The position numbers were made by a program, and so were the translations under genes. Below the pieces are notes generated by a model that was given only the letters and a program-made list of their open reading frames with translations, did no database searches and was not told where the DNA came from. Below are positions 2,321 to 43,100 of a stretch of 64,000 nucleotides of DNA, in pieces (positions within the stretch are counted from its first letter, which is position 1; every line of letters begins with the position of its first letter). Origin of the DNA: Raja brachyura (lineage: Eukaryota); the NCBI GenBank assembly GCA_963514005.1, contig OY740811.1, positions 26,846,001 to 26,910,000 of the forward strand. Direction: 5' to 3'.

Positions 2321-3572
2321 ATCACACCAGAACTTAGCTTTGTTCTTTCCTGATCTTCACCCATGCTGTTTGAATCATTAACTAGTAAAAGTAACAAGCA
2401 CAAGTATATTTTTACAAACCTGTTGCCACAACCAAGATCAGCAAACTAGGATAGACACAAAATGCTGAGTAACTCAGCGGGATGGGCAACATTCCTGGAG
2501 AGAAGGAATGGGTGACGTTTTGGGTCGAGACTCTTCATCAGACTCAATTCAGCAAACTAGGTATGGGTTTCAATTGTATTGTTTGTGACATAAGCATTTA
2601 GAGAGGGTGCAGAGGAAATTTATCAAAATGCCATCAGCGATGAGGGATTTCAGATTTGTTGAGGGACCAGAAAAAATAGAATTGTTCTTCTTCAAGCAGA
2701 GAAGAATGAGGGGAGATATAATTGTGTTTAGAAACTGTAGATAGTTGAATTGAATAAATAACTAGAGACTCTTTCCAATGATTAGAGGATCCATACCATT
2801 GGAGGTAGGTTTATTTTAAAGAGGATGTAGATTAATTCATAATTTTCATAAAATAAGATTCACCCTCCCAACTATTATAGCTGTTTTCAGTGTCCAGAAC
2901 ATGTTGGACAACTACTGGCAGTGGTAGAGGTGGAGAGTGGGGGTACTTTGATGGTAATTCCAGATATATAGCCAATGGCTGCCTATCCTCATGTCTTCCT
3001 CCAACGTATTTCACTGTGGAAGAAAGATCCATAACTTCAACCTGAAACCACAACCGAACAATTCAGTTGCGACAAGAGATTAACAACAACTTCAAATCCA
3101 TAGGTTATTTGTTCAGTTTATTTTCTCGACAAATGTTCTCTCCCCACCTCTCCTGGTGTGAATCTGAGCTGGGAATGATCACAGGGGACTCTACCCGTCA
3201 GCACAGACAATGAAAGATTGCATTCTGAAAGGTCAGACTTGTATTCCTAAAATGGCCACTAGGCCTGCATAGTTCTGACAACTAAAATCTGTGACAATCA
3301 GTTGCCAGAACACTTTACAACTCAGTCGCAGAGATGTCTTTAGGGACTAGCAAGGCTTTGTGACAGGTTTCAACCATGCTGGATTGGGATCTGCTCTGCC
3401 TCCATCAGTTCCACATTAAGGCGATTGTCTATCGTTTTCCTTCTAAACTGTTCAAGCATAATTTTTTGCAGTTTGTGTGCACCAGCAAGTTTCATCAAGT
3501 GCCAAGGTTATGTGGCGACTGTGTGAACCATCCATTCACTCACAGTTCTTTGTTCTCCAAACACACCTTGGT

Positions 3573-3893: not shown

Positions 3894-6800
3894 CTATGAG
3901 GAGAAATCCATGCAACTGAACAGTCATGTAGTTCAACGAATAAGCACAGATCAAAGGCGAGATTGTCATCTTATTTGTGTGACCAAACTCCTTCTGCAAG
4001 CACAACTGAAACAGGCAAAACATATCCAAGACCATCCATTTTCCTGCACGTGCATAAAATATGAATATGTAACCAAACTACAGATATAATACAAGCACAT
4101 TCTCTCTCTCTCCCCTTATGATTCAGGTTGTATAAATATTGTGATCCAGGAACACCTAAAATTTTGTTTTCCTTAGAATCTCAACAGCTATAAAGTTCAT
4201 AATTAATCTCTTGTTAATCTACCTAATTTTAAATGCCTATATTGAAAATGAATAGTCACATAACTGAGTTAATTAACAATTTAACATTTATATTATCAAA
4301 TATTTAAACGTTTTCAGCCATAGTGTCTCATATGGCCTATTTATTTCAGCTAATATTTCCCCAAAGGAGTGAGTATTCTGACCCCCACCCCCAAACTCAG
4401 GTTTCACATGCCCTGACTTGTTCCAATACCCACCATTTCAAGATTTTCTTCTGCAACTTCAATCTTTAATACTTCACTGATTATTTTCAGTTTTTTCCTT
4501 GCACGATGTCTCTGCTGGAATACAAACAGTCAAACAATGGACCCTAGTTTAGAATAATGGAAGAAAGGACAAAATTCCTTATCCAGGACGTTGTAAAAAT
4601 GATGGTAGACAAAATGCTGGAGAAACTCAGCGGGTGAGGCAGCATCTATGGAGCGAAGGAAATGGGCAACGTTTCGGGTTGAAACCCTTCTTCAGACTGT
4701 AAAAATGATGATGTCTGGGGTACTGGTTCTACAGTCACTGATCATCTTTCAGCACTTGCCGAGGCACTCATTCCTCACAGGGGAGTCTCAACACAACTTT
4801 GTGTTTTCCATTACAATATCTCCTCATGCAACTTTCTTCAAGGCACAGTCACTGAGATTCAGATAGAATCTTTGCTCAGCACAATGGGGATCCTCTTGTT
4901 TGGGATCAAGCATTGCAGATTAGAAAAAAACAATGTAGAGTAAACCTCCCCCCTGTGATCTCAATGTCAACCCCCTTTTGCACATTGGGCCAAATTATAA
5001 ACCTCCTGCATGCAGGATCACAATCTCAATGCTTTAAACCCAGTCCAGATTAAAGCCCAAGACCCAGAGATGAAAAACCACTGTCTATTACTCTGCACCA
5101 CTCTGTCCCTTCACACTCTCATCCTTCAACAAATGGTATATTTCTGAAAAGCCTTTTATGCCTCAAATTAATTCATAATACCATTGCCGATCTTTTCCCT
5201 GTCGGGTCTCCGTTGCCCTTGGGGCCTAACACCGTGGAGCAGCCTCCAGCCGGAACGACCTGGGGGCTCCAGTCACAGAGCCTGCAGATTTACCATCGTA
5301 GGGCTGGACGGCCTCGGAGCATGGGGAGCTGTGGTGGTGCATGGCTGCGACCAGACTTCAGGCTTCGGAGGCTCCAGCTGCAGGCCTCTGGATGGTCCCG
5401 GGTGGGAGACCGCTTTCCGGCACTCCCGCGGCAGCTTCTCCCACCCGAGATGTGCGGCTGAAAACGGCCCGGAGCGGGGCCTGACATCGCCCAGCATGGC
5501 TTTAACAGCCACGGGACTTACCATCGCCTGCCGGGGGCTTTAACATCGGGAGAAGATGGAGAGCAGGGGAGAGACAAGACTTTGCCTTCCATCACAGTGA
5601 GGAGGAGACTCACTGTGATGGATGTCTGTGAGAATTGAGTTGGTTGTGTGTCTTGTATAATTGTTTCTTTGATCCCACCACCAGTCACATCTTCCTACCA
5701 CCAACCCTTTCCACTTTCCGCGGAGACCACTCCCTCGGCAACAGCTAGGTTCACTCATCCCTTCCCACCCAACCCACCCCCTTCTTAGGTACTTTCTCCT
5801 ATGACCACAGGAGATGTAATACCAGTCCCCATACCTCCTCCCTCACTTCCGTCCAGAGACCCCATCAGTCCTTCCAGAGATTCACGTGCACCTCCTCCAA
5901 CCTCATGTACTGCATCCAGTGTTCCCGATGTGGCCTTCTGTACGTTAGCGAGACCAAGTGTAGATTCGCCAATCGTTTTGTTGAACACTTGGGCTCAGTC
6001 CACCAATGTCAAATGGGTCTCCCGGTTGCTAACCAGTTTAACTGCTGTTTCCACTCTTATACTGATCTTTCTGTTCTGGCCTCTTCCTTTGCCAGAATGA
6101 GGCCACAAGCAAACTGGAGAACAGCAACTCGTATTCCATTTGGTAGCTTACACACAACAGTATGAACATGAAATTCAGCAGTTTTAGTAAACTGCTTCTG
6201 CAGTTTGAACATCAAGGGACATTAGCACAAATTACAAGACAGATTTTAAAGAACATCTTAGAGGGTTGCTGAGCCTCTGAACCCCGAGTTCGGGAAGAAA
6301 ATTCCAGAGGTTACATCCTGTGCAATTAAAGTAAGGCTGCTTATTTTGGAGCAGTTAAACCCCAGGATGTCTAGGTGGTCCGAACAAGGTTAATACAGTA
6401 CCTTTACATTATCTGGATAGTGAAAGACTGTGGGTACGGCATTATGCTTCAGATTTTTTCTGTTCCCCCAGGTGTTGAAACACTCTGGTTTGAAGTGGTC
6501 TGAGCAAATAACTGTGTGCTGGTTGGGTTTGAATTCAGCCCTTCCTACATTGTTCATCCATTCTATTAATAGGTCCGGCTTGCTGAATGGAAACCTGCGT
6601 ACATTGGAAAGAGCATCTGAGAATGAAACAATCTGCCTTTCAACAGCAAGCCCTATCCTTACAGCAACTACAGTGCATCAGTCTTATCTGGACAATTCAT
6701 AATCTACCCTATCTTCCATTACCTAGACCTATATTGTCCCCTTTCCTTCCTCTAGGACCGAATACATTATTGCACTATTTTAATTTATTCGTTGATCAAT

Positions 6801-10190: not shown

Positions 10191-10369
10191 CTAGCCCCAT
10201 AGCCGAAGCGTTCACGTCGAGGGGCTGGAAACTGAAAGTATCCTGAGCTAATTCTGCTACCACCATAATCTATTGCGACAAGTGATGGCTTACACTGATT
10301 GCGTCCTCTTCAGGACACAATCAGCGACAATGAGGTCAACATTTGTAACAAGATGGAGATGAAAAGAAG
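10191..10369 (+). mobile_element. 179-bp unclassified insert flanked by a 10-bp TSD (aatagcaaga)
   Basis: aatagcaaga at 10181-10190 and 10370-10379; the CR1 sequence is continuous once the insert is removed (compare the copy at ~1240). Confidence 0.8.
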
Positions 10370-15347: not shown

Positions 15348-18300
15348 CTGTTCAGGGGAGAAAGTTTATAATCACAAAATCAGGTAACAACATCTTACAT
15401 ATCCATCAGCAGTTTTCACAAGGTCAGGAATTCCTGATGTGCTTGACAGCAGCTTTGAATTGTCATGTTATTGTGAAGTGGGATACTAAGCAATAATATG
15501 TGCATGGCAAGATTTCATATATAACAAAGTGAGAATAATCAAGTAAATCATCATATAGTTTAAAGGATCAGTATTAATGAGAGTTGAAAACTCTTCTTCA
15601 AATTAGTTGCCAATAATTTTTTTTTGACACACACACTCAAGTCAGAAGGCAAATGAGACTTCAGTTTGACAATTCACTTGAAATATCATACTTCAAACAG
15701 TGTTGTACTTTCCCCAAATATTGACACTGCAGGTAAAAGACTAGATCTTTTGTTCAAGTGCATAGCAAGGTCCTTGACCTTGAGTGCATTTTAAAATTGT
15801 ACATTAACAAATGTCCAGATATCAACATCTCACTTCTCCATAACTATAATGTTATAATGCTGTATACTCTGTTATTAACGTTATAATGCACTAGATTCTG
15901 CACTCTGGTATTTTTCTCTTTGTGCTACCCATTGTACTGTGTATGGCACAGTTGTACTCACATATAGTAGGCTTTGACTGAATAGCAACAAAAAAGTTTT
16001 TCATTGTATTTCGATACACGTGAAAATAATAAACCAAAACTAATGTCAGTCGTAAATTCACCAGAACTAACCCTAGTTAGATTGCTTAGCCACATTTAAG
16101 ATTTGTTAATAAAACTGTTTAATCTGCAGAGTTCACTCATTTAGAACTGGGTTGGGATGACCTCCGTCTCAATGAAGGGAGCACAAGAGCGAGTGAGAAT
16201 ATTCAGATACAGAACGGGAGGAAATTAAGTTTGATTTTAAGTACCAAAGTTTAGGCATTAAGAAATGAGCAAGTTTTCTCAAAAGACAATTTTAGCCAAT
16301 TTGCTTTTGTAAACTTTAGTATGCTGGCCCAAATATTTATGAACATCATAAGTTTTCTGAAAGTTTTCAATCCTCTATGTGAACATAAGATCATTCAGAT
16401 CATTTCCGAACAGTTCAATTCTAATGTCAATATTACACCCCTTGTCCTGGACTTTACCATCACCAAAATAAATGGTTTCTGTTTAATTTCTATCCATCAA
16501 ATTGAAACATTCCTCATCTTAAATACTCTGAATACATCATTACATAATCTCAATAATTATAATCCCATTTAATATCAGGGTGTCAAAATGAGTGCAACAA
16601 AAGTTTGCCGAATAACCTTTTGCGGAATGGTTTAGTGCGCAAATGCGTAAAATCTTACAAACCAATCAAGTTTTCATGTAGTTTGTAAATCTTAATTAAA
16701 AATGACCCAAGGTAAGTTAAAACTGGTCATCGTGTCAATTGATGGACAAAACGATCACTCATTTGCCCTCTGCTGGATCAGTGTGTAAAATCATAATTGT
16801 CACATAAATGGGTTGGATACAATTTTCCCATATGATCGTAAATCCCGAATGGCACTCGACATGTAGATTTGCGATTGTTAAAAAAGATGAAGGAACTGAA
16901 AGGGACTGTTGTGTTCCAAACAACAATAGAATCAAACCCTAGCAATGGTCACCACTGAACGCGAGGAATATGAACCCAGGGTACATTTAGCTTTTGTAAG
17001 AATAATTGCTGAATTTACTGCTAGATGTACACGGGGGAGAAGGGATTAATAAATCTGTACACCAGTGAGTTTTTTATGATTGTAATTGGAAAATATTTGT
17101 CAAAAGTATCAGCAAGAGATAATAATGAACAGGCTCCGGTGCAAAGAAGCGTGTGCAATGACTTAAGTTTATGACATATTTAGAGTGTCAAACTGAACTG
17201 TTCAATTATAGATTCCAGATACAAAAATCATGTCTTGAAGGTCACTAGTCCCCTTGCTAGTCCTAGATCTTATAAAAATGTCAGAAGGATTGATGGGTTA
17301 CCATTTGTTACTTGTACTGGCAGTTAAAAGCTGTTTTTGTTAAGCTGCTTAAGGATCTGAGACATGAACTGGCCCTTATGGTCTCCCCCTGCTACTGACA
17401 GTTACGAGTCAATAGTACAGCGAGTTGCTGGCTTTGGTGGTTAATGGTTTGACAATAATACCACCTATTATAGATCTGACACAGCATGGTATGGTAATGA
17501 CAGACCCAATTCACCTCAAAATTAGAACTGTTAACCCAGCATAAAACTCAGGACATTCTTTGTTCACATACTGCAGTCTCACATTGGAGAATATTTACCA
17601 GTCAAGGTAGTGGAAGAGGACCCACACTGAGTCTATAAACGCGCACACACACACACGACAATTAGTAGCAACCAACTGTATGGCATATCTAATGCTCACT
17701 CACCAGAATCCACCATGATGTCCTCATCATTGCCTGTGGTATCCACATCTCTGAACACAACCTGCTTTCCCTGACGGAAAACTGTTCTGTGTCGTTCCAC
17801 TTTTTCACTTTCTATCGTCTCATTCTTCGTTTCTGTTGCAGTGACTGGCACACAAGAACCATCCTTGCCTTCTCTTGGGATGTCCATGAGGGGTTCCGGG
17901 GCGAGGGGTTCCGGGGCGAGGGGTTCAGGGGCGAGGGGTTCAGGGGCGAGGGGTTCAGGGGCGAGGGGTTCAGGGGCGAGGGGTTCAGGGGCGAGGGGTT
18001 CAGGGGCGAGGAACTCTGTGATAACAGGGGCTGGTATTGTGTCCTCTGCATCATGGTCAGTGAATTCTAATTTGGACACTGGATTCAGGTCAGATATTTC
18101 CTGCTTGATGGTTTCCTCGATGTGTGGTTCTTCTATCCTCAGGCCCTCCTCTTTTGTCCTCACCTTGTGCTTTCTTTTTATCTTGTCAGGCTTCCTCCGA
18201 TTGAAGGCAGGCAGCAGAAAGCCACTGGATTTGTGATGCTTCAGAAATGAGTAGGGTTTGGCTCGTTTGAAGCCTGTTAAAGTTTGCGTGCGCTTAACTT

Positions 18301-21300
18301 TGGAAGGAATGGAGAGTGGAAGGTCATTGTAGCTAAGATCCCAGGTCTCACTGTCTGCTGTGCTGCCTGTACTGTTGGGAGGACTGGAACTGGTCCGGAG
18401 AGGCAAATCCTGACAAGGCAAAAGCAACACATCAAGTCAGAGAATTATGAGGAGCCTGCGTGGCTCCGTGGGATGAACTCTCATCTTAGAGTCAGAAAGT
18501 AATGAGTTCAGAAAGCTCAAGCACATAATCTATGCTGACAATCTTGAGTCAGATGGTGAAGGGGGCTTGTGGGGCTATGTGCCAATCCTCTTTAACCCTT
18601 ACACAATTACCTTTAAATCTATAGCCCTGAGTTAGTGTCCGTTCTGTCAAAGGAAATGGATGCTTTTGTTATACCATCTTTCAAATTAGAACTTTTCCCT
18701 GACTGGGGTTGGAACTGTAGCAAAGGAGCAGACGGAGGGAGCAAGCAGATGGAGGAAGGGACAGGATGAGCTGACCACGAGGATAAATGGGTAAGAGTGA
18801 GGGGTATTAGAGATAGAGAAGGGGTTGAGAGTGGGGGACAGGGGGTTGTGGACATTAGGTTGGCAGAGGGAAGGAATGGACAAAGGTGGTTGGAGGGGAA
18901 AGGAGAGAGGGCGAGGCTGATCCACCTCACCACAATTTTCCCACCTCATCCCCATAAACACTCAATTCCTCTCATATTCAGACGTCTATGTACTAGTTTC
19001 TGGATGAAATCAATGTTTGAATCTTCACAGCTCTCAAGGCTGCACAATTTCCCAGATTCACCACACTTCTTGTGAATAATTTTCACAATTTTTTATCCTT
19101 TATGGCCTGCTCATTTTCTTCCAACCTCTCCAGCCATGTGACATTTCCTCCACATACATACTCCTTTGAACCCTGCAAGAATGTTGTATGTTTCAATGAG
19201 GTCACCTCTCATTCTTCTAAATTCCAGAGAACTGGACTACACTGATTTTCCACTGTGACCCACCATCCTAGGATCCTGCCTGATGAATCTTTGCTGCACT
19301 CTATACAGCAAAGGAACCAAGCATTGTATATAGTACTCATCAAACCATAGTAAGAATAGTTAAACTCACTTCCTGGGGGCAAGGGATGTACCCAGCGTAA
19401 ACTAACACAAAAGTGCAGAATTTGTTGAAATCTTCCACTGTTCTGCTCCTTTTATCAGATGGAGAGTAATCCTGGGGTAGAACAAGAGAAGGTACAAAGT
19501 TAGACATTAATTTATGTAACACTAAATCGGCAGCACTCCAGGCGTGTATTGGTAGTCACAAGTCTTAACACATATTAGTAATTCTTCTTGGCTGCATTTT
19601 TTCATATTTCATTATTATTCCAAACGTTAAAGGCATTTCTGATCAGTGAGCCACAGTTCCTGCCATTACCTAGTTTAAAAGATAGTGTTTTACAGGTGTA
19701 GTGTGGCTGTGGTTAGAGGGGGTTAGAGGGGGTAGAGGTAGATTCTTGCTTTGGGTCATCCAAAAGGCTTTATTTCTGGGTGGTATTGGATGTGAAGTTT
19801 TCAAACTGACTAGTTAAATGTAAGATAGACACAAAAAGCTGGAGTAACTCAGTGGGTCTGGGACAAAGGATTAGGTGACATTTCGGGTGGAGATCCTTCT
19901 TCCAAAGTAATAGGTGACATTTTGGGTCAAGACCCTTCCCACTCAGTTAAATGTAATTTGGCTTTAGCAGTGGTGCTGACAGCACTTTCTCTGCTTGCCT
20001 CGAGTTTTGCATAGATCGAGACAACATTTCAAGCTCAATTATGTTTTTAAAAAACCCAAATGCACAAAGAATAAGAAAATGTATTGGAAAGCCATTTGAC
20101 CCTGCGGTTCCTAACGTTGAGGTAAGTAACAGCCAGCAAGCTGTCTGTGCTCTGACTTTCTCTGTGGTGTGAGGAAGGCACCTGATGACACCAGTAACCG
20201 AGGCCTCTGGCACCCAGTGTCCAGAATGATCACACTCTCTACCTTCACAATCAAATTCATCGTGCAAACTTCCCCGCGAGAGAGGCGTTCATTTTCCCTC
20301 ATTGCAAAATGCCACCCACATTGAAACTTATCGGACTAAACAGTATGTACTCGGCTCTACAAATTTAACACGGAGCTACTCTAGCAGGCATACGCTTCCA
20401 TAATGCAATCTCACTATTATTACTTCCCCGGGATTGACCTGCTTACTGTTAACACTCGGTTATAGACATACGTACACGTTTTACACACTGGGAATTAACA
20501 AATCCAAGGGGTCCATCTTCTCTTATACAACAGCTCCGAGTGACTGTACAAACAAAGGGGTCGATTCATTCTTGTATATTGAATATCATTTATTAGCATT
20601 AAACCTTTACAATTGACTGTGAATTAAGAGAGCAGCCACGAAAACCGCCGAATTGATTTTAAAAAAATAGTTTGGAGTAGGGACGTTCTGGCATTGGTGA
20701 AATTAGTCGAGGCGGTGACGGGCGGGGTGTTTTTGGAGCCGGGGGGAGAGAAGTGGGGGTCAGTGGGTGAGCGGACCATTAACTGGGAAAATAAAATTAT
20801 TATCCAAAAGCAGGGAAAGGCAGGAAAAGGGAAGGGTCAGAGGCAAGATGGCGAATATTCATTATTTTTAAAAAACACACAGGGATTGGCGATCTCGGGG
20901 GAACAGACAAGCAGCAGACATTTGAAGGGAGGGAATTAAAATTGGATTTAAAAGGGAAACGACCCCCCCCCCCCCAAAACCAAATCTCCAACTCTGGACG
21001 GGAGGCAATAGAAGGTGGTGGGCGACTGGTTATTGCTAACCCATCTACTCCGATTAATAAGGGGTTTAAATGTATATGCAAATCAACAAGATGGCGCAAG
21101 GCGATGTACTCCGAAACCTTTGGGTCTGAAATTGATCCGATTGTCGACGGGAAACGGCATAATATTATTATTTTTTAAGTTGAATTTCGAGTTAGATAGA
21201 TAGACACGCCACATATCAAATCAGTCTCAAACCCGGAGAGATCTCTGAATCGTCTACCGCCCCACCCCCAACCTCAGTGCTGTTTAAAATCAGATAATAA

Positions 21301-24650: not shown

Positions 24651-24952
24651 TGTTTGGTCTGTTTCTGAACTAAGTCTATGATAAGCACCACATCAAAAGG
24701 TATTGATGACAATAAAAACTGATGATGTAAGAGTACTCAACTTTTGACCTGTGTTCCTGTAGGTGGTTGTGACTGGCCTAATTGAATTTCTGGTGATCCC
24801 CAGGAAATCGACAGTGGGAGGAGTCGGTTATAGTCGAAAGTAAATGCGTGAGATCCCTGTTGGAGATGATAATTGTCTGGTTTGTTCACACCGACAACAT
24901 GAACGCACTGTTCTATACATTGTACTTTTAAATTCAAGTTTCGGATCTGGTA

Positions 24953-25168
24953 ATAGACACAAAAAGCTGGGGTAATTCAGCGGGACAGGCAGTATCTCTG
25001 GAGAGAAGGAATGGATGACGTTTCGGGTCGAGACGTCTGAAGAAGGGCCTCGTCCCGAAATGTCACCCATTCCTTCTCTCCAGAGATACTGCCTATCCTG
25101 CTGGATTATTCCAGCTTTTTGTGTCTATCTTCGGTTTAAACCAGCATCTGCAGTTCCTTCCTACACTT
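24953..25168. mobile_element. Palindromic (head-to-head) Penelope-terminus repeat
   Basis: The left arm tagacacaaaaagctgg...gaaggaatggatgacgtttcggg is the near reverse complement of cccgaaatgtcacccattccttc...ccagctttttgtgtcta. Confidence 0.85.
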
Positions 25169-25790: not shown

Positions 25791-27432
25791 TCATCTTCCT
25801 TTGTGTGAAGTATTACTCCAATCATGTGCGAGTTTTCCTTTGATGCCCATTGACTTCAGATTTACAAGGCTCCTTAACGTCCCACATGGTCAAATACTTC
25901 CTTGCTATCAAGGGCAGTCATTCTCACCTCTCTTCTGGAATGGCTCCTTGGCCCATGTTTGTAGCCCACTTCATCACTTTGATGATTGACAGTAGATTAT
26001 TTGGGCAGTAATTAGGTTGGATTTCGATTGCTTTTTATGGACTGGTCATTTCTGTGCAATTTTCCATGTTGTCAGGTTTTATTTCCCTCCTGGGATAAAT
26101 AAAGTTGTATTGTATCGTAGGTGCTAGTGCTGAAACTGCAAGAATAACTGGACTAGTGGCACAACAATGAACACTATTTCATTCTACAAATCCAGAAAGG
26201 TCTTCCCTCAGTCTCACAAATTGCTGTATTTGGAATCTTGTGTGAAATTGATTGTCTACTACAATGACCTTGTTGATTTAAAGCACTTGGGGAAAATCCA
26301 GGAGGTTATGGAACTTTTGATAAATATGAGAAATGCTATCCATAATCCCAATGCTTTAACTGCAATTGCTATACCCAAATGTCCATTCCAAATATGGATT
26401 AGAGGTGATAAGTGATGAAGACAAAAGGCTGCAAATAGTGGAATCTGATAGGAGAGGACAGTGGGGAGGGAAATATAGAACCAGAAGGAGGGATGGTGGG
26501 TAGAAGGACACGGCGGTGGGGGAAGGTGCTGCATGATCCACTGGGTTCCTCCAGCAGTTTGTTTCAAAGGCTGACATTAGCACAGTGCAGTTGGCAGCAC
26601 TTTCACTACTGTCATCATTGTCACCCTTGCTCCTGGACCAGTGCTAACGTGGTGTTATGAATCAGATCAGATTACTTCTGAGGTGCATGGTAATAGTCCC
26701 ACAGCTGTGAGAAGAGACATTCTTGACCAGTATTCATTTAATTTGTTGTGAGGACCATTGGGATATGTTCATTGCTGTGGATGGATACATTTTGCCACAA
26801 AACTCATACTCGTACTTCAGAAAGTGCAAAGTATGCAAATCCTATTTTTGTATGGATGATTATATATTTCAATGGCACTTTACAAAATCCAGAAAGGACT
26901 ATCTGGCTTCCTCTAGAAATCCCACCACCTCAGATAGAAACATGTTAAAAAAAAAGTTGCCCCTTGGGTTCCTTTTAAATCTTTCCCCCCCTACCTTAAA
27001 CCTATATCCTTAAACCTATAACCTTAGCCGATTGGCCTATGCTTCTTCCTAATTCCTGAAGCCCTATGAGCTCAAAATGCTGGAGTCGGAGTGAAGTAAC
27101 TCGAGTAACCAGACTCATAGTCAGTAGAAACATAGAAAATAAGTGCAGGAGTAGGCCATTCGTCACTTTGAGTCAGCACCGCCATTCAATATGATCATGA
27201 CTGATCATCTAAAATCAGTACCCCATTCCTGCTTTTTCTCCATATCCCTTGTTTCCCTTAGCTCAAAGAGCTAAATCTAACTCTCTCTTGAGGGTTCCAA
27301 GGCGAAGCATTGTCTACCTGTCCTCTAGAGATGCTGCCTGATCCGTTAAGTTTCTCAGGCACTTTGTATTTTGTTCAAAATTCCAGCATCTGCAGTTTCT
27401 AGTGTCTCCTGAATTCCCTTGATTTGAATTCC

Positions 27433-27525
27433 CAGTCTGAAGAAGGGTCTCGACCCGAAACGTCGCCTATCTCCTTCACTCCTTAGATGCTGCTGCACCC
27501 GCTGAGTTTCTCCAGCTTTTTGTAT
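27433..27525 (+). mobile_element. Penelope-terminus short repeat with an intact minimal hammerhead core
   Basis: CTGAAGA-A-GGGTCtcGACCC-GAAAC-GTC at 27437-27464. Confidence 0.75.
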
Positions 27526-27949
27526 TTCCCTTGATTTGACATGTTGTTGTCATTGCTGTAATTCCGGAAATCTGCCGCAAGGTGGCGAGTCCTTGCAGTG
27601 AGAGGTAATGCTCCTCATTTGCCGGTGGATGGGGCAGTGGGCGTAGCGCCCCCGAGCGGCCGGCATGCGGTGCCGCAGTGGGTTTGCCCTGAGTTAGTTC
27701 TCTCTGGGCATCCCAGCCTAGAGGTTCAATGTAGCTGGTCAATATCTTGACACTTTCAGAACGGGTTTTGATATCTTGACACTTAAAAAAATTAGGTTTT
27801 ACTTACAGGTTTAGGTATATTTTTGTCACATGTATCGAGGTCCAGTTAAAAGTTATGTTTTGCATGCCATCTAAACAGATCAGATATACCATACCATACA
27901 TAGAAACATAGATACAATGACTGGGAAGATACAGAGTGCAGAATATAGT

Positions 27950-29412
27950 CTGGGTGGAGTTTTTACGGACATTTTCAACCTGTCACTTCTGAGGTCTGAG
28001 GTTCCCACCTGCTTCAAAAGGGCATCAATAATACCGGTGTCCAAGAAGAGAAAGGTGATGTGCCTCAATGACTATCGACCAGTGGCATTAACGCCTGTGG
28101 CGATGAAGTGCTTTGAGAGGTTGATCATGGCGAAAATCAACTCCTACCTCGACAAAAACCTGGACCCACTGCAGTTCGCTTACCGCCACAACAGATCAAC
28201 GGTGGATGCGATCTCACTCGCCCTCCACTCCGCTCTGGACCACTTGGACAACAAAGACTCATATGTCAGGCTGTTATTCATCGATTACAGCTCGGCATTT
28301 AACACTATCATCCCCTCCAAGCTGGTTACCAAACTCGCAGAACTGGGACTCTGTGCATTCCTCTGCAATTGGATCCTTGACTTCCTCATTCACAGACCAC
28401 AGTCTGTTTGTATTGGTGGAAATGTGTCAGACTCGATAACAATCAGCACGGGAGCACCTCAAGGCTGTGTGCTCAGCTCCTGTTGCACTCACTCTATACT
28501 CATGACTGCGTAGCCGGTCATAGTGCGAACTCCATCATCAAGTTTGCTTACGACACCACTGTTGTGGGACGTATCACTGATGGGGATGAGCCAGAGTATA
28601 GAAGAGAGATCGAGCGACTGTCCATATGGTGCCAGCACAATAACCTGGCCCTCAACACCAGCAAAACCAAGGAACTGATTGTGGACTTTGGAAGGAGTAG
28701 GATGGGGACCCACAGTCCTGTTTATATCAACGGGTCAATGGTTGAAAGGGTCAAGAGCTTCAAATTCCTGGGCGTGCACATCTGTGAAGATCTTTCCTGG
28801 TCCGAGAACACAGATGCAATTATTAAGAAAGCTCATCAGCGCCTCTACTTCCTGAGAAGATTACGGAAAGTCGGCCTGTCAAGGAGGACTCTCTCTAACT
28901 TCTACAGGTGCACAGTAGAGAGCTTGCTGACCGGTTGCATCGTGGCTTGGTTCGGCAACTTGAGCGCCCTGGAGAGGAAAAGACTACAAAAAGTAGTAAA
29001 TACTGCCCAGTCCATCATCGACTCTGACCTTCCTTCCATCGAGGGGATCTATCACAGTCGCTGCCTCAAAAAGGCTGGCAGCATCATCAAGGACCCACAC
29101 CACCCTGGCCACACACTCATCTCCCTGCTATCTTCGGGTAGAAGGTACAAGAGCCTGAGGACTGCAACAACCCGGTTCAGGAACAGCTACTTCCCCACAG
29201 CCATCAGGCTATTAAACTTGGCTCGGACAAAACTCTGAACATTAATACCCCTCCATCTGTTATTTGCACTTTATCAATTTATTCATTCATGTGTGTATTT
29301 ACGTATATAATTGTAGTCAATGCCTACTATGTTCTGTTGTGCTAAGCAAAGAAAGAATTTCATTGTCCTGTTAGGGACACATGACAAATTCTTTTGACTT
29401 TTGACTTTGACT
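27950..29412 (+). mobile_element. Rex1/Babar-clade non-LTR retrotransposon, 5'-truncated, reverse transcriptase disrupted
   Basis: [55 protein letters not shown]; one frameshift near 28480; (ttgac)n tail. Confidence 0.92.
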
Positions 29413-30960: not shown

Positions 30961-32495
30961 GTGTCATTTTCTATGCTTTGTTGGGCTGATTCCTCAAACA
31001 CCATTTTCCCTTCTGTTATTCCAATAGCATACAGTCAGTTCACAGCATTGTTGTGACATTTATATCAGGATAGTATCTGATAAGGAGTCAAGATTGGAGC
31101 CATTAATTGAAAGTTAATTACACTCTCACCAATATAGTCACAGATCTGTGCACCACGGAAATAGGCCCTTTGGTCCACCATGTCCATGCCCACCGCCTTG
31201 CCATTCTGGGCTCATCCCATTTGGTGTATTGCTTTCTTCCTATCCATATATCTGTCCAAATATATTTTAAAAGTTGTAATTACATCAGCTTCTATAGTTT
31301 CCTCTGGCAGCTCATTCCAGATATGCAGTACCATCTGAGTGAAAACTTGACTTTTTATGTTTCTCCTGCCAAAGTAGATAACTTCACATTTATACTCGAG
31401 TTACTCCAATGGCCCTGCACATACTTGTTCATTATAGTGCCTTGAAACCTTTTTGCTTCATTAAATATCTCAATCATTGTCATCTTTTGAAAAATAAATT
31501 CATTTCCTTCGTCTGGATTATTGATGAACTGTGAACATCTGGGTCTTGAGCACCGATCCCCGTGGTAGTCCACTAGTCACCAGCCACACAGTGACAGGCC
31601 CATTTACTCCTTCTGTTTCCTGTCTGTCAACCGATTCTCAATCCTTGTCAGCATATTGTTTAGCTTAGCTCCCAATTCCATGTGCTTCAACAATCAGCTC
31701 AAATACCAACAGGTGGAAGAGAAAAGAAACAAAGCAATAACTTGAATGTGAAATAGCTGAGGGCTGCGATGTGCCCATGGAACAGTACAGCACAGGAACA
31801 GGCCCTCCGGCCCATAATATCCATGCCGAACATGATGCCAAGTTAAACTAATCTGCTTTGCCTGGATGTGAACCATATCCCTCCATTTCCTGCATTTTCA
31901 TGTGAAATGTAAAATCATTACTGGCCGAAGTGAGATTCAAACATATCTAATCCAGCCCTTTGGATGCAAGCCCAGTAACTTATTCATTCGACAACCATGC
32001 CAGTGTAAAGATGGAAGCTGAGTTACTGTTGGATACAAAAAACAAAAAGTGCTGGAGGAACTTAGCAGTTCAGGCAGCATCTGTGGAGGGAATGGACAGA
32101 TTACGTTTCTGGTCAGGACCCTTCTTCAAACCCTGACTCATTATTCCAGCCACGTGTCTTTCCTCAGCACTCTTCCTTCTGTGTCTGAGATTGCTGGAAC
32201 ACCGGACAAGGCCATAAACCAAGGTCACAATGTGTGTAGGAGGGAAAATTAAAGCGACAGATGACTTGAAACTCAGGCTCATCCTTCTGCACTGAACATA
32301 GATGTTGCACAAAACAATTGCCCATTCTGCATTTAGTTTACCATTGTGGAGAAGATCACATTGTGAGCATCAAATGTCATACAGGCTGGAAGTAATCCCT
32401 GACCTAGTGGTCAAACTGTGACCCAGCGTTGTACCCACCTTCCCTCAACTCCCTTGCCAAACAGCACTGAAATATTCACAATTTGTACTCTGGCC

Positions 32496-33331: not shown

Positions 33332-33422
33332 GAATTACTGAGCTTGTTGCTAACGAACGATCCAAATGAATTTAGAAACATTTCAGAGGGGAAGTAAACT
33401 TTAGTGAATGATTCAGAATACA

Positions 33423-33556
33423 GAGTCTGAAGAAGGGTCTCGACCCGAAACGTTGCCTATTTCCTTCGCTCCATAGATGCTACCTCACCCGCTGAGTTTC
33501 TCCAGCATTTTTGTCTACCTTCGATTTTCCAGCATCTGCAGTTCCTTCTTAAACAG
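33423..33556 (+). mobile_element. Penelope-terminus short repeat with a minimal hammerhead core
   Basis: CTGAAGA-A-GGGTCtcGACCC-GAAAC-GTT at 33427-33454. Confidence 0.75.
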
Positions 33557-36094
33557 AATACATACTTTGTCATTTTATCCTCACCCTGGAGATGTCAAGA
33601 CTTTACTGGCTTGCTGATTCATAAGCCCAGCTAACAGTTAGCTGTTCATAAGTGACCGTCATCATTTACAGGCATTGATTATTTGACTGGATGGCTTAGG
33701 AGTTCAATACCATTCTCGTCCATGTCACCATGACTGCTTGCAACAAGGTCGCTGCATAGTGACCCTGTACGACAGTCCCAGCTGATGTTATTTTCAATGT
33801 GCTTTCTGTGGCTCTAGGGTGCGCCAGCTGTACCTATCCCTATGGATACTGCTTTCCAGACCTGGGCCAGCTATTTGACACTTGGAAGCTTGGAGAGTAT
33901 AATATGGGGTACTCAGAGTGACAATGCTGCGGAGCTTTAGTCCATGCTAGTGCAGTAAATGTTTCTTGCTGAACAAGGAATTCGGCCTTGTACCTTAACA
34001 TATCACAAGGTCATTCTTATTGCACAGCTCTGTGAACGAACCAACCTATTTTTGGATTGCCACTTCCTCTGGTTTCATATCAATCAACATTTCATCTGAG
34101 TGGGGAACTATAGGGTCTAGACTTGGTTACTATACAGCCCTTCATTAGTTAGGTTTGCACGATGTTCATGATTAGAGGACTGTGGTTTTGAAGTCTTCAT
34201 AATAAAACGAGTGAACAGATGATGTACCCCAGGATAAAACAAACTGGAGTAAGCCACTCGGCCCATCGAGTGTGCTCTGTCATTTAATAAATTAATGGCT
34301 GATATGATTGTGACATTTTGCGTATGGCGTGCACAGCCTAAAGTTGTAGATCTAGGATGGTCATCCAGGCCAGGACAGCATCAGTTACTGGGTGGATGGC
34401 TTTAATGCCCCCAGGGAAAAGCCTCAGTGAGCAATCATTCATGATATGTGGGATGGTCTGGTCTGGATGTCCGCAGTCACAAGCAGGACTGAAACGCTGC
34501 ATTCCCACTTTATTTTCATAAGGTCATCAGTGATAGGAGCAGAATTAAGCTATTCGGCCCATCAAGTCTGCTCCGCCTTTCAATCAAGGCTGATCTATCT
34601 CTGTCTCCTAACCCTATTCTCCTGCCTTCTCCCCATAAGCCCTCACATCAATGTGGTGATCTTTCATAATCTTGCCTATCAATAATGTACGTACCTTCAT
34701 CTTAAAACTATTCAAAGACTCTGCCTCCATAACCCTGTGAGGAAGACAGGGCAAGTTTCCAAATATGCTGCCTCTAGCACCTTATCTACAGTGCAGCCAC
34801 ATTTAGGGATCTTTTGACTTGACCCTACCTGTCATTGTGCATTAACCTTATTAGTCCTTCCAAAGTGCAGCACCATGCACTTATTAGGATCAACTTTGAA
34901 CTACCATTGGCCTGTCCATTTTATCAACTGATCAATATCATCCTGTAGCCTCTCCTCTGATACTGGAATTGGCTAATTTTAATGATGATGAGACACAATT
35001 AAGATTGGTGTTGTAATTGTTAAAGTCAATGCTGCTGTGATTTACCAGAAATGGTCTGAAGGGCCCTGACAAAGTAACTGAGGATTGGCAATTGGGGAAG
35101 CTTGAGCAAAGGGAAAGATAGGAGTGCAGAAATTAGTTTTCAGCATTGTTGCTCATCAGTTCCTTGCACGATGTCCAATGTCCTCAACAATGGGATAGAG
35201 ATTAATCAAACAGTACCGTAGTTTATGGAAGGACTGTCCAGAAACCTGATAATGGGGGGGAGGTGAAGAATCTGGTGGTGCACAAATCAAATAATTTAAA
35301 TCTATTTAATGTGTTGGGCAAGAACTTCCAAAAAGAGCAAGGGAGGCGAGCACTATGGGTATGTTGGTGTGACTAATCCAGCTGTGTTCACCACGGGATT
35401 ATTAGTCTCCAACAAGCAAGTGATAAACTATTGCGGAATGTCCTGAAGTACTTCACAGTCAGTGAAGTACTTTTGAAATGTTGTCACTGCTATGATTTGG
35501 GCATGCGGCAGCAAATTTGCTCACCCAAAGATCTAAAAATAATTAAAGACCGGATATTCTGTTTTTGAAAAAGTTGGTTGCAGGATGAATATTGGTCAGA
35601 ATACAGTGAGAGTTCTGTTGTTGTTTACGTGAGAGGCATGGATATAACCTGTTATCTGACATTGGATCGCTCCCTCATTGTGGGCTGGGTTGTTAGCTTG
35701 GATCCTTCTGCTCATGACTGGAGTGCAGCTGAAACCCACAACTTAAGGTAGAACGTATTACATTGAACTCAGATCTGGGGGCCCAGTGCCCCTGCTCCAC
35801 ACATGCTTACTGCTGCTCTGGAAGAGGATACGCTGTCTGGAAGGGCATGATCCTGTTCCGTGACTGTGTTATGTACGGACCGAGAAGTACTGGGTTGTTA
35901 ACGGGTTTCAGTTCGCCAAGTTTTAATCCATTGAATGCTCGTAGTGTCAGCGTGATTTACAAGTTGCAGCTGACGCTGTTGCTGGTAAATATAACGCCCA
36001 CACGAGTGGGTCAGTTATAAAGCTGCTGAGTTCTTGTTGTAATAACCTCTCTCTCTCTCTGGTCTTGCAGATGATTTGATCCCCAGAACTCAGC

Positions 36095-37121: not shown

Positions 37122-40100
37122 GCAAGTGTCTAGCCAGGATTGGGGATAGACTCTGCTGGAGTAACTCAGCGCATCAGGCAGCATCTTTGGAGGACATGGT
37201 TAGGCAACGTTTCTGGTCAGGACCCTTCTTCATACTGCAGAAGGGTCAATAGACAATGGATGCAGGAGTAGGCCATTCGGCCCTTCGAGCCAGCACCGCC
37301 ATTCAATGTGATCATGGCTGGCCATCCCCAATCAGTACCCCGTTCCTGCCTTCTCCCCATATCCCCTGACTCCGCTATCTTTAAGAGCCATATCTAGCTC
37401 TCTCTTGAAAGCATCCAGAGAACCTGCTTCCATTGCCCTCTGAAACAGAGAATTCCACACACTAACAACTCTCTGTGAGAAAAAGTGTTTCCTCGTCTCC
37501 GTTCTAAATGGCACGACTACTGATCCTGACCTGAAACATCACCTATCCATGTTCTCCAGACATGCTGCCTGACTGGCTGAGTTACTCCCCCCAATACTTT
37601 GTATCTTTATTTGTAAACCAGCGTCTGCAGTCCCTTGAGTCCACAAGCTTAAGTTTAGGTTTATTATTGTCACGATGTGTAACGAGGCACAGTAACACCA
37701 AACGTTCTTTTGCATGCTATCCAATCTGATCAGATACTACTATTCAGAATACAATCAAATCAATCTTAAGCATAATAGGTAGAATGTAAGAAAATATACA
37801 GAGTGCAGAATATAGCTTTCAGTATTGCAGCACACCAATTCCATAGACAAAACCCAATGTCCACACGGGGGTAGAGGTGAATCGGACAGTAAATTCGATT
37901 CACCTTTACAGAAGGACTACTTGGAAGGCTGATAGCAAAATGGAATAAACTGTTCCTGAATCATGGTGGTGCTTGCTTTCAAGCTTGTGTTTCTTCTGCT
38001 TGATGGGAGCAGGACGAAGAAGAATAACTGGAGTGGGACAGGTCTACGGTTATGCTGGCTTCTTTCCTGAGACAGCGTGAAGTGTAGATGGAGCTAATAG
38101 TGGGAAGACTGGGCTACATCCACAACTTCTTGTGCTCTTGGGCAGAGCTGTTTCCAAACCAAGCTTTGATGCTACCTGACTGTATGCTTTCTGTGGTGCA
38201 TCTGTCGAAGTGGGAGAGGGTCAGTCTGGTGGGTGATCCTCAGACTCGTTGATCATAGCAAAGGTTATGGCAAGCCCTTAAGGTCATAAGTGATAGGAGC
38301 AGAATTAGGCCAATCAGCCCATCAAATCTATTCCACCATTCAATCATGGCTGATCTATCTCTCCCTCCTAACCCCATTCCATTGCCTTCTACCCATAACC
38401 CCTGACATCCATACAAATCAAGAATCTATTTATCTCTGCTTTAAATATGTTCATTGACAGCCTCCACAGTCTTCTGTGGCAAAGAATTCCACAGATTCAC
38501 CACTCTCTGACTAAATAAATTCCTTCTAATTTTTCAATCCCTGGACAATGCTTCCCTCCCGCACCACCCCCTCCCCGGGCACTTTCCCTTGCAACCAGAA
38601 AAGATGACACACTTGTCGCTTTACCTCCCCCCTCGGCTCCATTCAAGGACCCAAGCAGTCGTTCCAGGTGTGACAGAGGTTCACCTGCATCTCCTCCAAC
38701 CTCATCTATTGCACCCGCTGCTCTAGATATCACCTGATCTACATCGGTGAAACCAAGCGTAGGCTTGGCGATCGTTTTGCCGAACACCTCGGCTCTGTCT
38801 GCATTAACCAACCTGATCTCCCAGTGGCTCAGCACTTCAACTCCCCCTCCCATTCTGAATCTGACCTGGGCCTCCTCCATGGCCAGAGTGAGCATCACCG
38901 GAAATTGGAGGAGCAGCGCCTCGCATTCCGCTTGGGCAGTTTGCACCCTAGCGGCATAAACATTGATTTCTCCAATTTCCGGTCGCCCTTGCTGTCTCCT
39001 CCCCATCTCAGCTCTCCCTCGGCCCTCGGGCTCCTCCTCTTCCTTTCTCTTTTCTTCTCCCCGCCCCCCCCCCCCCCCCCCCATCAAAACCCTACATCAG
39101 TCTGAAGAAGGGTTTTGGCTCGAAGCGTTGCTTATTTCCTTCGCTCCACAGATGCTGCTGCACCTGCTGAGTTTCTCCAGCACTTATGTCTACCCTCCTT
39201 AGATGCTGCCTGACTTGCACCCGAGTTTCATCAGCACTCCGTGTTTTGCTAAAGATCTATCTTAAACACTCATATGCCTGTGCTGTATCTTCTATGAGCT
39301 AACTCTCTCATCCCATTCTTGGGTTCTTTTGGATTCTTAGCATTTTGGAAAATTTAGATTTCTGGGATCTATTTAATGTAAAAACCTTCCTTCATTTCAC
39401 TACTGAATGGCCTGAATATAATTCTCATGGAAGCAAAATCTCTGTTCAATTTTATGAAGAAAATAGAGGAAAGTTCAATCAGTAGAAATAGTTAAGGGGA
39501 GATTTCCTGACGGTGTTTAAAACTTATGAAGGATGTTGGTTGAGTAACTAGGGAGAAATTATCTGCTGGTTGGGAGAAAGCCAAAGGGCACAGACAGAAG
39601 GAAATTGACAAAAATATTAGAGACTGAGCTGAGGGTTTGCTTGTAACGTGAGAGATATTCTGCAGGAGAATGTGTTGTCTTTAAATTGGTGGTTGGGGAG
39701 GATTTGAGGACAGGGGAAGGGGATGGTGTGGAAGCAGATTTAATAGTAACTTCCTACACCAAATGGGGAAAAACTGTTGTAGAGTGGGGAGGTGGAGGTA
39801 AGATTAAAGCTCTGGGCCCAGTGCTCTGTATGGCATTTAATTATCTGTCACCTGGGCAGTTGAACCGCTCTTCCTTAGCTATTTTAAATTCACAGCCCCA
39901 CAAATATATTTGATATGCTCAAAACCAAACTAAAAACCTGGGAGACTACTTCTGAAATGGGCTGTAGCCTTTCAGTTTTAAAGGTTTCTCGATGGTCTGT
40001 TCACCCACACAACTGAACAAACTTTGGGATTGAAAAAAGTTGCAGAGCTGTCCATGATGGTTGGACAGCGGTCAATATTACATATTTAAGTGTCAAACGT

Positions 40101-43100
40101 TACAGAGGCAGAGAAGTTCTGAGACACAGCTTAACATTGCTGGAAATTGTGGCCCTGCTATTTCTGTCCTTGTGGCATCAGTGGTCACTCCACATACAGA
40201 TCATGCCGCTCTGGTCAGAGCATGTGACTATGGGGGAATACAATTTATTTATAATTAGCAGCCAGCAAAAAGGCACTGGGTGAATTATGTTCCCAGATAC
40301 GTCTAAGCAGTGCTCTTTTTCTTGTGACGCCAGTACAACGTACCGGAGCCTCTAACCTGACACACATGTTAATTAATCATGTTTAACTAATGGATAATAT
40401 AAGTGAATGAATTAAAACATTGAGCAAAACCCAAAGATGCTGAAGGAACTCGGCCGACGAGGCAGCAGTTATGGAGTGGACGAACAGATGAACTTAATTG
40501 AATTTTTTTTGTTCCATTGTTGGTAACACTCTTGATCTTGTCTTGACTCTTCACGTTTCGAATGGGGACCCTTCTCCCACCTGAAGAAGGGTCCCGACAT
40601 GAAATGCCACCTATCCATTCCCTCCACAGATGCAGCCTGATCCGCTGAGTTCTCCAGCACTTTTTTGTTCTGCTTATGATTCCAGCTTCTGCAGTTCCTT
40701 GTTGCTGCCAAACATTTGACAATACTTCTTGAATTCTGATGACCTATTCCCCTAGTTGGTGGCGAAGGGTTTTGAATTGGCCATTGAGGGGAAACTTCCT
40801 GAACTTGCAAGATTGTTGGAGCATTTATCCTTTCTGTGCCAATGGGATAAATATTTGAAAGGGGTAGATCCAGGACTTGATAGAACAATGAGATGATCTT
40901 TAGATGTATTTATATAAAGCCCCCCTTGATACAATGATAGCAAGTTTGGTTGTGAGTGGTGTCCAGACCCACACAGAAAGACTTTAGTCTCTTTAGGCTA
41001 TCCAGAAATGATTTGTTCACGGTGAGATATGTCTTCCAAGTGCAGTCATTGTTGTAATGAAGGAGTTTCTGTACCCAGTTTTTCACCCAGCTCCCATGTA
41101 GAACAACGTAATATTAAAAAGAAGTTGAGCTTGGTGATGTTGGGTGATTGTTAGGACATTGGGAAGGACCACTATTTCCACAAAGGGATCTTCTACCCAA
41201 GAAATCATTGGCCTTTGCTTTAACATCTCAACCGAATAACTCAAGATATCTCTGACAGTGGCACTCTCTCAGCACTACCATGTTATTATCAGTTTTGAGC
41301 CCCGCTGGATCTTCTCCCCCACTGAGTGCCATCTTTGAGCCACAGCTGGTGCATGCTTGCAGCACGGTGACTGCTGTATCCTCATCATGTCTGTTCTTGT
41401 TTATTAGGTGGTTCTGACGGGACCTCATTGTACGACTCTGTATGGCGGTACAACTCCAGCGTGAATGAGTGGACAGAGGTTTCGCCCATGCTGCAAGCTC
41501 GTGAATACCACAGTTCCGTCGTGCTCAAGGGACACATTTACATCCTGGCGCCCAACAGCTTGGAGCGCTATGACCACTCCTTGGATAGCTGGGAGGCCTT
41601 GCAGCCAATGCCCTACCCCATGGACAACTGCTCGATCACGGCCTGTCGGGGCAGGTTGTACACCATCGGAACCCTTGCTGGCAAGGAATTGATGGCCATT
41701 CAGTGCTACGACCCTGATGCTAACCTGTGGACTATGGTGATGTCTGGCACGTTACCTCCATGGTCATTCGTGCCAAAGACGGTGACCCTGAATGGATTGA
41801 TATATTTTGTACAGTAAGTTTGAAGTTTAGGTTTATTATTGTCCTGTGTTCCAATGTACAGTGAAAAGCTTTGTTCTGCATGCTATCCAAATAGATCAGA
41901 TATACTACATAAATATAATCAAGTGAAACTCAAGAACAATAGGTAGAGCAAAGAGGAAGATGCCGAGTGCAGAACTGCCTAGGTTGCACTAAGGACATTG
42001 GTCTTTTTTTGCACCTGGGCTTTTTTAATATTACGCTTTTTTTATTCAATAAAATGTTCTGACTTTTTGTTTATTATGTTTATCTATTAGTATGCTAATT
42101 ACAGAGCTGTTATGCTGCTGTAAGAATTTAATTGTTCTATTTTCGGTACATATGACAAGTAAACACTCTTGTCTTGACACTTGAACCAAGTTCCCTTGCA
42201 TGACCTAATTATTTATTAACTCTTGTTTATTTCCATTGAATTAGTCGGGAGGTTTGGGCAAGGGTTGTCTTGGGGATCATTTCTTCGTTAGCGAGGTGAA
42301 AGAATTTGCACTTTAATTGTGTCTTTCATGACGTGGGTCCCAAGGGATTTGCAGCCAATGAAGAATGGTCACTGTCATAATGACCCAATGTTCAGCTTCG
42401 AAGGAAGCCCTCATTCGCTGAATCTTCGTCTCTTTTTCTTGGGGGCACCAGATTTGTAGTAAGGGGTTGGCCATTCAGATTTTTTTTGTTGCCCAGATGA
42501 TAGTGAAGATAGATGCCCAAAAGTCTAGTATTGAGGCGATGACCAGCATTTTAGATATTAAGGGAAACCAAAGCATATACGAGGTTGTTGCAGAAAGTGC
42601 TGATAAAGATCAGCCATGTTCCAAATTCTAGCAGGCACCACGGTCTGAATGACGTACTCCTCTTCTTTCTCTGTGTTCAAATTTTTTCTGTAGTTGTTAT
42701 TCTTTGGAATATTTATCTTGTTCCCTTTTGAAGCTATTTCCACCAACTGGACATTCCAGACTTTACCACTTTTTGCATTGAAAAGATTATCTTATTGTTG
42801 CCAGCAGTTCTCTGGCCACAGTGCAGTCATTGGAAACTGTTTCTTACATTATTCTGCCTAAAAATGTTTTCATTTCAATAATGTGAAATTAGTGGATATG
42901 AACAGCAAGAAATATTAGCGTGAGATGTGGGGGAGTTAATGTTGATGAAGATTTAAATCTTGTCTGTCTATTCTGTTTCATCCAATGAAGACGATGATCA
43001 TGGATATCGCTGGTTGATCTATACTTCCCTTACTACACTCCCTGGGCTAATTGGTTAGTGTGGTGTTGGATTGTGAGCTCTGTTGGATTGTGGCCGATTA

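Follow-up and report, generated by a model that had tools for sequence, protein, structure and literature searches.

A short dispersed repeat that carries a self-cleaving RNA motif into the introns of host genes raises two questions: where the repeat comes from, and whether its copies cut the transcripts that contain them. Such copies lie in a 64,000-nucleotide stretch of the Raja brachyura genome (here the window; GCA_963514005.1, contig OY740811.1, positions 26,846,001 to 26,910,000). A first-pass annotation of the window described a minimal hammerhead core and proposed that the repeat seeds potentially functional ribozymes into introns. The analysis points with good confidence to a different overall reading. 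The repeat is a terminal piece of a Neptune-type Penelope-like element (PLE) that includes the hammerhead, its short solo copies (stubs) are likely run-offs of internally primed cDNA, and host RNA is likely left uncut.

Unit positions are counted from the A of AGTCTG, found at 27434 and 33424 and, on the minus strand, at 4698. On this scale the hammerhead occupies positions 4–31, with a predicted cut after 31. The core at 27437–27464 is present exactly as first described and matches every letter of the consensus of Fig. S3 in PMC4209133:

27437–27464, plus strand: minimal type I hammerhead
27437–27443: CUGAAGA
27444: extra A
27445–27448 with 27453–27456: stem II, with a 4-nt loop
27457–27460: GAAA
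27460–27463: palindrome ACGU
27464: C, after which the cut is predicted
27435–27436 with 27465–27466: stem I, 2 bp only

The extra base after A9 and the ACGU palindrome had both been noted correctly, and the motif recurs, as claimed, at 33427–33454 (with GUU) and at 4695–4668 on the minus strand. Stem I had been given as 2–3 bp and has 2 bp. Stem II, drawn with 5 bp, consists of 4 bp and a 4-nt loop, and the fifth pair has a predicted probability of 0. A change at this pair was thought to be compensatory. However, the pair would close a 2-nt loop and its sides vary independently (C-G 197, C-A 56, U-G 27, U-A 8; Fisher p=1.0). One change is a subfamily loop variant and the other looks like CpG decay. 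Two-sided covariation, proposed as a check on stem II, is absent from this helix within the repeat family. Outside CpG sites, the variants that occur often each alter one side only and leave the fold possible: U-A becomes U-G in two places, the loop changes, and GUC becomes GUU.

Across the family, all core letters of the PLE minimal type I hammerhead (CUGANGA, GAAA, NUH) are present. The majority letters include A at position 11, G12-C23 (G10.1-C11.1), and C28-G29 (the palindromic 15.2-16.2), and helix I has at least 2 bp (G2-C33 and U3-A32 or U3-G32). The available portions of PMC4209133 list as common features of PLE hammerheads CUGANGA with an extra base, G10.1-C11.1, GAAA, the palindrome, NUH, a short helix I, a location in the pseudo-LTR (pLTR), and mostly dispersed single copies. 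In these portions an Acropora Neptune hammerhead has the same 4-bp/4-nt helix II as the Raja repeat, and the 56 representatives include no cartilaginous fish; with 2 bp, the Raja helix I is among the shortest, although published examples of that length exist. The motif itself is of the published PLE kind and is ordinary as a ribozyme find, and its first placement as a PLE-type minimal type I hammerhead inside a very abundant repeat was right.

A strict minimal-hammerhead descriptor finds three matches in the window, the same three copies. It finds 23 in genome samples of 580 kb (58 evenly spaced 10-kb pieces), all from the PLE-stub repeat, and none in the same pieces reversed. With this descriptor, no second hammerhead family was found in the window or the sampled DNA. 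A suggested Rfam search gave no hammerhead-family match in the window at E≤10.

A profile search picks up 21 pieces from the window and 290 from the 580 kb, and none from the reversed sequence. Every decayed copy listed earlier exists. The copies and related fragments in the window are:

27434–27525, plus strand: tailless PLE stub covering unit positions 1 to ~92, from the young subfamily B, differing from the pLTR of the complete element L262 at 1 of 90 nt
27414–27427 and 27526–27539: its 14-bp target-site duplication (TSD), with 6 other bases between the left copy and the stub
33424–33555, plus strand: PLE stub with a ~35-nt tail, positions 1–132, subfamily A, hammerhead at 33427–33454 (GUU)
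33414–33422 and 33554–33562: its 9-bp TSD
4605–4697, minus strand: PLE stub without tail, starting at position 2, hammerhead at 4695–4668, sense to a THAP-domain gene
4698–4710 and 4592–4604: its 13-bp TSD
24952–25166: head-to-head stub pair, one arm tailed, cores damaged
53105–53313: older head-to-head stub pair, one arm tailed
38551–39197, plus strand: 5'-truncated PLE with zinc-finger/GIY-YIG end, pyrimidine-rich 3' UTR, and pLTR, 79% identical to L262 over 550 nt
5670–6143, plus strand: older PLE ORF fragment, thumb/zinc finger/GIY-YIG region, 68% over 487 nt
165–278, minus strand: decayed stub without CUGAAGA
2444–2548, minus strand: decayed stub, G12 lost
19816–19939, minus strand: direct duplication, a short piece (to about position 43) and then a stub
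27291–27403, plus strand: old, decayed and tailed stub that closely precedes the 27434 copy
32039–32135, minus strand: decayed stub
37153–37239, minus strand: decayed stub
37522–37636, plus strand: decayed stub with tail
40580–40703, plus strand: decayed stub with tail
55060–55179, minus strand: decayed stub with tail

The parent element is thus represented within the window itself, by the copy at 38551–39197, in whose pLTR the core is broken (GAAG for GAAA).

Extrapolation to 2.7 Gb gives ~1.3 million pieces, with arms counted apart, and roughly 0.7–1.6 × 10^5 intact motifs. The available text of PMC4209133 gives 4,000 for coelacanth and 9,000 for Xenopus. Close pairs are 104 head-to-head versus 8 tail-to-tail, and such hairpins could feed small-RNA silencing. 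As a side observation, the pairs at 24995–25086 and 53173–53275 score as MIR4378 and MIR7994 precursors, far below cut-off. A separate locus (L046:7632-8091) holds a tandem array of ~66-nt units from positions 24–90 that lack CUGAAGA. A non-LTR retrozyme with tandem canonical hammerhead units was considered as an identity for the repeat and rejected, as copies are solo or inverted and direct neighbours number only 19 among 546 pieces. In the available parts of the sources, animal non-LTR retrozymes (PMC7229834; bioRxiv 10.64898/2026.07.22.740005) resemble the Raja stubs in being short, protein-less, hammerhead-bearing, and derived from PLE pLTRs. The stubs differ in being dispersed singly or inverted rather than in long tandem arrays of canonical hammerheads.

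The origin of the repeat emerges from its longer matches. In about half of the best 30 genomic matches, the sequence upstream is a pyrimidine-rich UTR preceded by a reading frame for GIY-YIG and RT. In near full-length copies the ORF end is followed by the UTR, the hammerhead, the tail, and an ATG. One copy, L262 (L262:2130-6645, G000:C30), is complete, with a pLTR, a 1,191-codon ORF from position 167, and a second pLTR, giving a unit of 3,989 nt. Its ORF contains PADKG, YIDD, CNRKRCYTC (residue 1058), and VYC...YIG, and CNRKRCYTC corresponds to the CX2-5CxxC zinc finger between RT and endonuclease. The motifs, rather than a tree, assign the element to the EN+ PLEs of the Neptune clade. Pfam places GIY-YIG over the cut-off in L033; a second search gave both RT and GIY-YIG below it, and support for RT stays under the curated cut-off throughout. 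The ORF had no solved-structure match. For the C-terminal 328 aa of subfamily B, all 122 scored matches are 98–100% identical and stop-free, which marks the subfamily to which the 27434 copy belongs as young. Three of the 122 have 1,203-codon open frames, at loci that include L260 and L261. Judged from the sequence, the repeat corresponds to the initial ~97 or ~132 nt in the RNA of a Neptune-type PLE, and is the terminal piece of an intact young retrotransposon.

Partial pLTR tandems, an optional 30–40-nt tail, and head-to-head inversions were all found, as in EN+ PLEs. The available parts of Craig et al. (bioRxiv 2021.04.23.441226) and Arkhipova et al. 2013 (PMC3846280) describe EN+ Neptune PLEs with RT, a C-terminal GIY-YIG, and a CX2-5CxxC linker as in Raja. 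They also describe partial tandems, head-to-head inversions, a tail at one end, and 8–14-bp TSDs. Compared with these accounts, the Raja element differs in its 1,191-codon ORF with a long low-complexity N-terminal part, and in stubs that vastly outnumber long copies. The portions of PMC3846280 consulted attribute solo pLTRs without TSDs to deletion and also call on self-priming, whereas the Raja stubs carry their own TSDs. The closest experimental comparison is PAc, a Poseidon element of the green anole (Frangieh et al. 2024, PMC11167929). The available text reports two internal priming sites, with priming shown in vitro, and a 30–40-nt tail, as in Raja, and a hammerhead in the pLTR with no sign of cleaved ends, also as in Raja. 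The Raja element has instead a Neptune-type linker and an ORF that begins 135 nt after the cut site and not inside stem II. The words 'transcription start', 'TSS', and 'solo' are absent from this text.

It is conceivable that the stubs propagate as a non-autonomous family of their own, SINE- or retrozyme-like, from short masters. Their huge number, uniform size, and possible internal initiator fit such a family, as do the short tandem arrays (L046 and 743 direct duplications). Nevertheless, the stub subfamilies match the long-element subfamilies almost base by base, ends are heterogeneous, and no stub-specific lineage is seen, as judged without a tree. Furthermore, the anole protein required ORF sequence past the priming site, which stubs lack (PMC11167929, in its available part). 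Independent propagation is therefore considered quite improbable.

The ends of young copies bear on how stubs form. The 5' ends were mapped by a reference-based method in 81 young copies chosen by positions 47–90 only, replacing an all-against-all map in which chance extension and unknown UTRs obscured the ends. They fall at −5 to +9 in 49 of 81, ~18-fold above the per-base rate over positions 10–46. Sixteen of the 81 extend upstream of +1, as do 16 of 30 ORF-bearing copies, and 5 of the 30 ORF-bearing young copies also start at 0 to +4. At the other end, 41 young copies stop at 90–99 and 27 at 131–134. TSDs of 9–14 bp flank 23 of 114 stubs and none in a shifted control, a search that supersedes a looser one (40/230 versus 14 in the control). 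Separately, the near full-length L261, L263, and L264 have 5' ends at ~81–89, just beyond unit length from a 3' end at 97; in the larger ORF-bearing set this holds for only 1 of 30, the same locus as L261.

The base preceding starts at 0, 1, 2, and 4 is G in 20 of 36 cases (p=0.0008; loci from mixed searches). The 33424 stub is preceded by a single untemplated G at 33423 that is likely cap-derived; an untemplated G at the end of a cDNA can be read as a copied cap. The genome also holds 743 direct duplications of the first 27–52 nt, some repeated two or three times. In a hand count of 100 listed of these, some of them duplicates, the base before A+1, if not the templated C, was G in 29, A in 7, and T in none. 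The upstream pieces among these 100 end mostly at 37–38 (about a third), and may be jumps onto short promoter-proximal RNAs.

Young chimeras join a piece from ~1 to 505–1923 to a second from ~1 to 97, with short and often A-rich junctions. Nine of ten were used for TSDs (L330 was left out), which surround the whole insert in 6/9 and the 3' part alone in 0/9. In some chimeras the 3' part begins at −60 or −256. Both parts begin at 4 in L275, and at 45 and 46 in L298, as if one RNA had been read twice. Full-length copies show a related pattern in their terminal repeats. In a set of 20 elements in which L335 and L336 are one array and L292 and L293 one locus, 5' and 3' pLTRs differ by 0.6% within an element and by 2.1% between elements. 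The pairs share 35 variants, compared with 10 in permutations, and 5 private variants occur in both repeats. Three of the 20 (L291, L297, L299) share no variants, although each has them in its two repeats or has several in a single repeat. Inheritance from a master whose repeats already matched, or copying of a circular template, should likewise produce shared pLTR variants.

Together, the 5'-end pile-up, untemplated G, chimeras, and shared pLTR variants suggest internal priming, run-off at a capped start, and end-to-end template jumping. Transcription would start at about +1, at an initiator-like pyrimidine-C-A-G-U-C-U, which would place the hammerhead at +4 to +31 of the RNA. The element protein would nick DNA and prime at 97 or 132, and the cDNA would run off the capped 5' end. 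Stubs would result if the cDNA integrates at once, and head-to-head pairs if it folds back. If it jumps to the RNA 3' end or the matching 3' repeat, the products would be chimeras, full-length copies, and partial tandems whose repeats match. Landing seamlessly in the 3' repeat would yield a full-length copy, and jumping a second time a partial tandem. Retroviral minus-strand strong-stop transfer and the end-to-end template jumps of R2 are parallels. In each case a short cDNA reaches the RNA 5' end and transfers to a 3' end, with terminal repeats regenerated and untemplated bases at junctions. The Raja PLE would differ in being primed by the DNA target at an internal RNA site, without a tRNA primer, RNase H, or integrase. 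That such a strong-stop-like transfer regenerates PLE pseudo-LTRs, with the million stubs as its failed first step, is a proposal for which the case is evenly balanced.

The boundary at +1 could instead be a 3' splice site, or a block to RT in the 3' repeat, making the stubs extreme 5' truncations and the chimeras internal skips. All five subfamilies have pyrimidine-rich UTRs of ~95–320 nt that are unalignable and end in CAG at the unit start, and so place an acceptor-like site there. Additionally, a Drosophila virilis Penelope intron ends at helix I, according to the part of PMC4209133 available. One copy (L255:1400-1720, minus strand) precisely lacks the 3' UTR from GT at the ORF end to AG at positions 1–2, and is either a spliced retrocopy or a microhomology deletion. 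However, this pattern was found only once genome-wide, and subfamily B has no good donor at its ORF end. A splice site would neither stop a polymerase nor add a G, and a hairpin stall should leave ends near 20–25, where only 5 of 81 young copies end. This explanation is regarded as decidedly unlikely.

Ribozyme cleavage left no clear genomic trace. Copies do not start at 32 more often than expected, and in the 100 listed of the 743 duplications the upstream pieces show no surplus of 3' ends at 31. Among the young copies, 5' ends at 29–35 number 3 of 81 versus 2.6 expected; one long (L277) and one short copy start at 32. By hand count, at most 8 of the 100 listed rows end at 31, several from GTC microhomology. 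These data bear on the model of Cervera and De la Peña, in which dimers are cleaved, the unit is ligated, and rolling-circle copying gives long copies and tandems, while linear RNA that escaped cleavage yields the stubs. In its favour, the cut would be hidden once ligation had rejoined the ends, the pLTRs are matched with private variants, and young long elements retain intact cores in 25/28 5' repeats and 23/25 3' repeats. The ORF-bearing L277 and the short copy beginning exactly at 32 also fit. Conversely, circles leave the ORF-bearing copies stopping at +1 and the end-to-end chimeras unexplained, and the upstream duplication pieces end mostly at 37–38 rather than 31. Anole core mutants also left insertion unaffected in vitro (PMC11167929, as far as its available text goes). 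Circularisation is thus considered unlikely, and capped-start run-off is preferred.

The window also contains a ribozyme of the HDV type. It stands at the head of a ~180-nt element at 10191–10369 (plus strand), which lies within a LINE fragment and has a 10-bp TSD and a GAA-repeat tail. The ribozyme is close to that of mammalian CPEB3 and scores 32 bits. Seven of 11 other copies pass Rfam's cut-off, and a first look at the genome gave 2,105 candidates, with 5' ends at GGCCCC. By eye, nearly all 11 copies, chosen as full-length matches, start at the ribozyme's first base, in contrast to the PLE hammerhead, which left no clear cleavage mark.

The effect on host genes depends on where the copies sit. 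Those at 27434 and 33424 lie between a CpG island at 20.0–23.5 kb and a splice acceptor at 36070, and are therefore likely within the 5' UTR intron of a BTB-BACK-Kelch gene. The 4698 copy lies between exons of a THAP-domain gene, and all three intact copies in the window appear sense to their host gene. The gene context first proposed is plausible from the BTB-BACK-Kelch ORF from 36095 and the THAP exons. RNA-like contigs from three studies begin to match at 36070–36071 with extra letters upstream. Such contigs show neither ends nor strand, and the position of the Kelch gene's first exon did not emerge from them. The genes are presumably KLHL21, PHF13, THAP3, and ZBTB48, going by human sequence and gene order. 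Elsewhere in the window, an exon of the PHF13-like gene contains a tandem 15-nt coding repeat (PEPLA) at 17860–18010 (minus strand). A broken LINE fragment with RT, unrelated to the PLE, lies at 27875–29238 (plus strand; Pfam RVT_1, E 5e-19).

Conservation of the core was named as a check on function. In 262 full copies, the majority base is retained at 92.7% of core positions outside CpG sites, versus 90.9% for a control block of invariant positions (p=0.055), and in the first 134 full copies alone p=0.38. G12 is kept in only 69% of the 262, like other CpG sites. Ninety-seven of the 262 have an intact core, 42 of them with intact stems as well. Solo hammerheads therefore appear to decay at the background rate and are not seen under selection, with core conservation slightly above the control. 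The motif seems to be kept in source elements only, as subfamilies with unalignable UTRs hold positions 1–31 almost unchanged, though variation outside the core is partly by construction, since those positions were used for clustering. A strand test covered 600 kb of introns in six giant genes, whose orientation was read from their laminin-G and CUB exons. Intact cores were sense in 29 cases and antisense in 30, and fully foldable ones in 13 and 12; all repeat pieces in the same introns divide 130 to 129. The test excludes only an approximately two-fold depletion (95% interval 36–63% sense).

The predicted fold is also unfavourable. In RNAs of 60–300 nt starting at +1, stem II has a probability of 0.00–0.06, and a competing hairpin that pairs 6–14 with 33–44 is predicted to bury the core. 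A duplex between two ACGU palindromes is predicted at only −1.7 kcal/mol. This predicted 'off' hairpin agrees with the non-cleaving monomers of the PLE minimal class in vitro (available parts of PMC4209133 and PMC11167929) and with the protein-assisted anole ribozyme (PMC11167929).

The first-pass annotation had the repeat spreading potentially self-cleaving motifs through introns. If they worked, the dispersed copies would be active ribozymes and would cleave host pre-mRNA, here within introns of the KLHL21-like and THAP3-like genes. The ~10^5 extrapolated intact motifs and the sense orientation of all three window copies would suit this, and in germline cells the copies might conceivably pair with one another through ACGU or be assisted by protein in trans. 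Nonetheless, sense cores are not depleted, the core is not better kept, G12 is lost at the CpG rate, and the predicted fold and the inactive monomers oppose it. Background-rate decay and the lack of intron strand bias make cutting of host RNA unlikely, and the hypothesis of active intronic ribozymes is considered highly improbable.

What remains is a role within the element. Alone, the hammerhead is predicted to sit in the 'off' hairpin; in source elements it would most likely fold with the help of the element protein or of the second copy 4 kb away, and, at a late stage of the cycle, would trim read-through RNA of the element itself. In the open literature searched, neither a PLE run-off and jump model nor a PLE hammerhead in shark or skate was found. 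Nor did that literature yield what is added here: an intact parent of recent age, an intron test with a negative outcome, and the evidence from caps, jumps, and matched repeats. For the ~10^5 dispersed minimal hammerheads, the question of an effect on host introns is answered in the negative, such an effect being unlikely. If the proposed cycle is true, L262, an intact young vertebrate Neptune element, would make the whole cycle and the role of its ribozyme testable.
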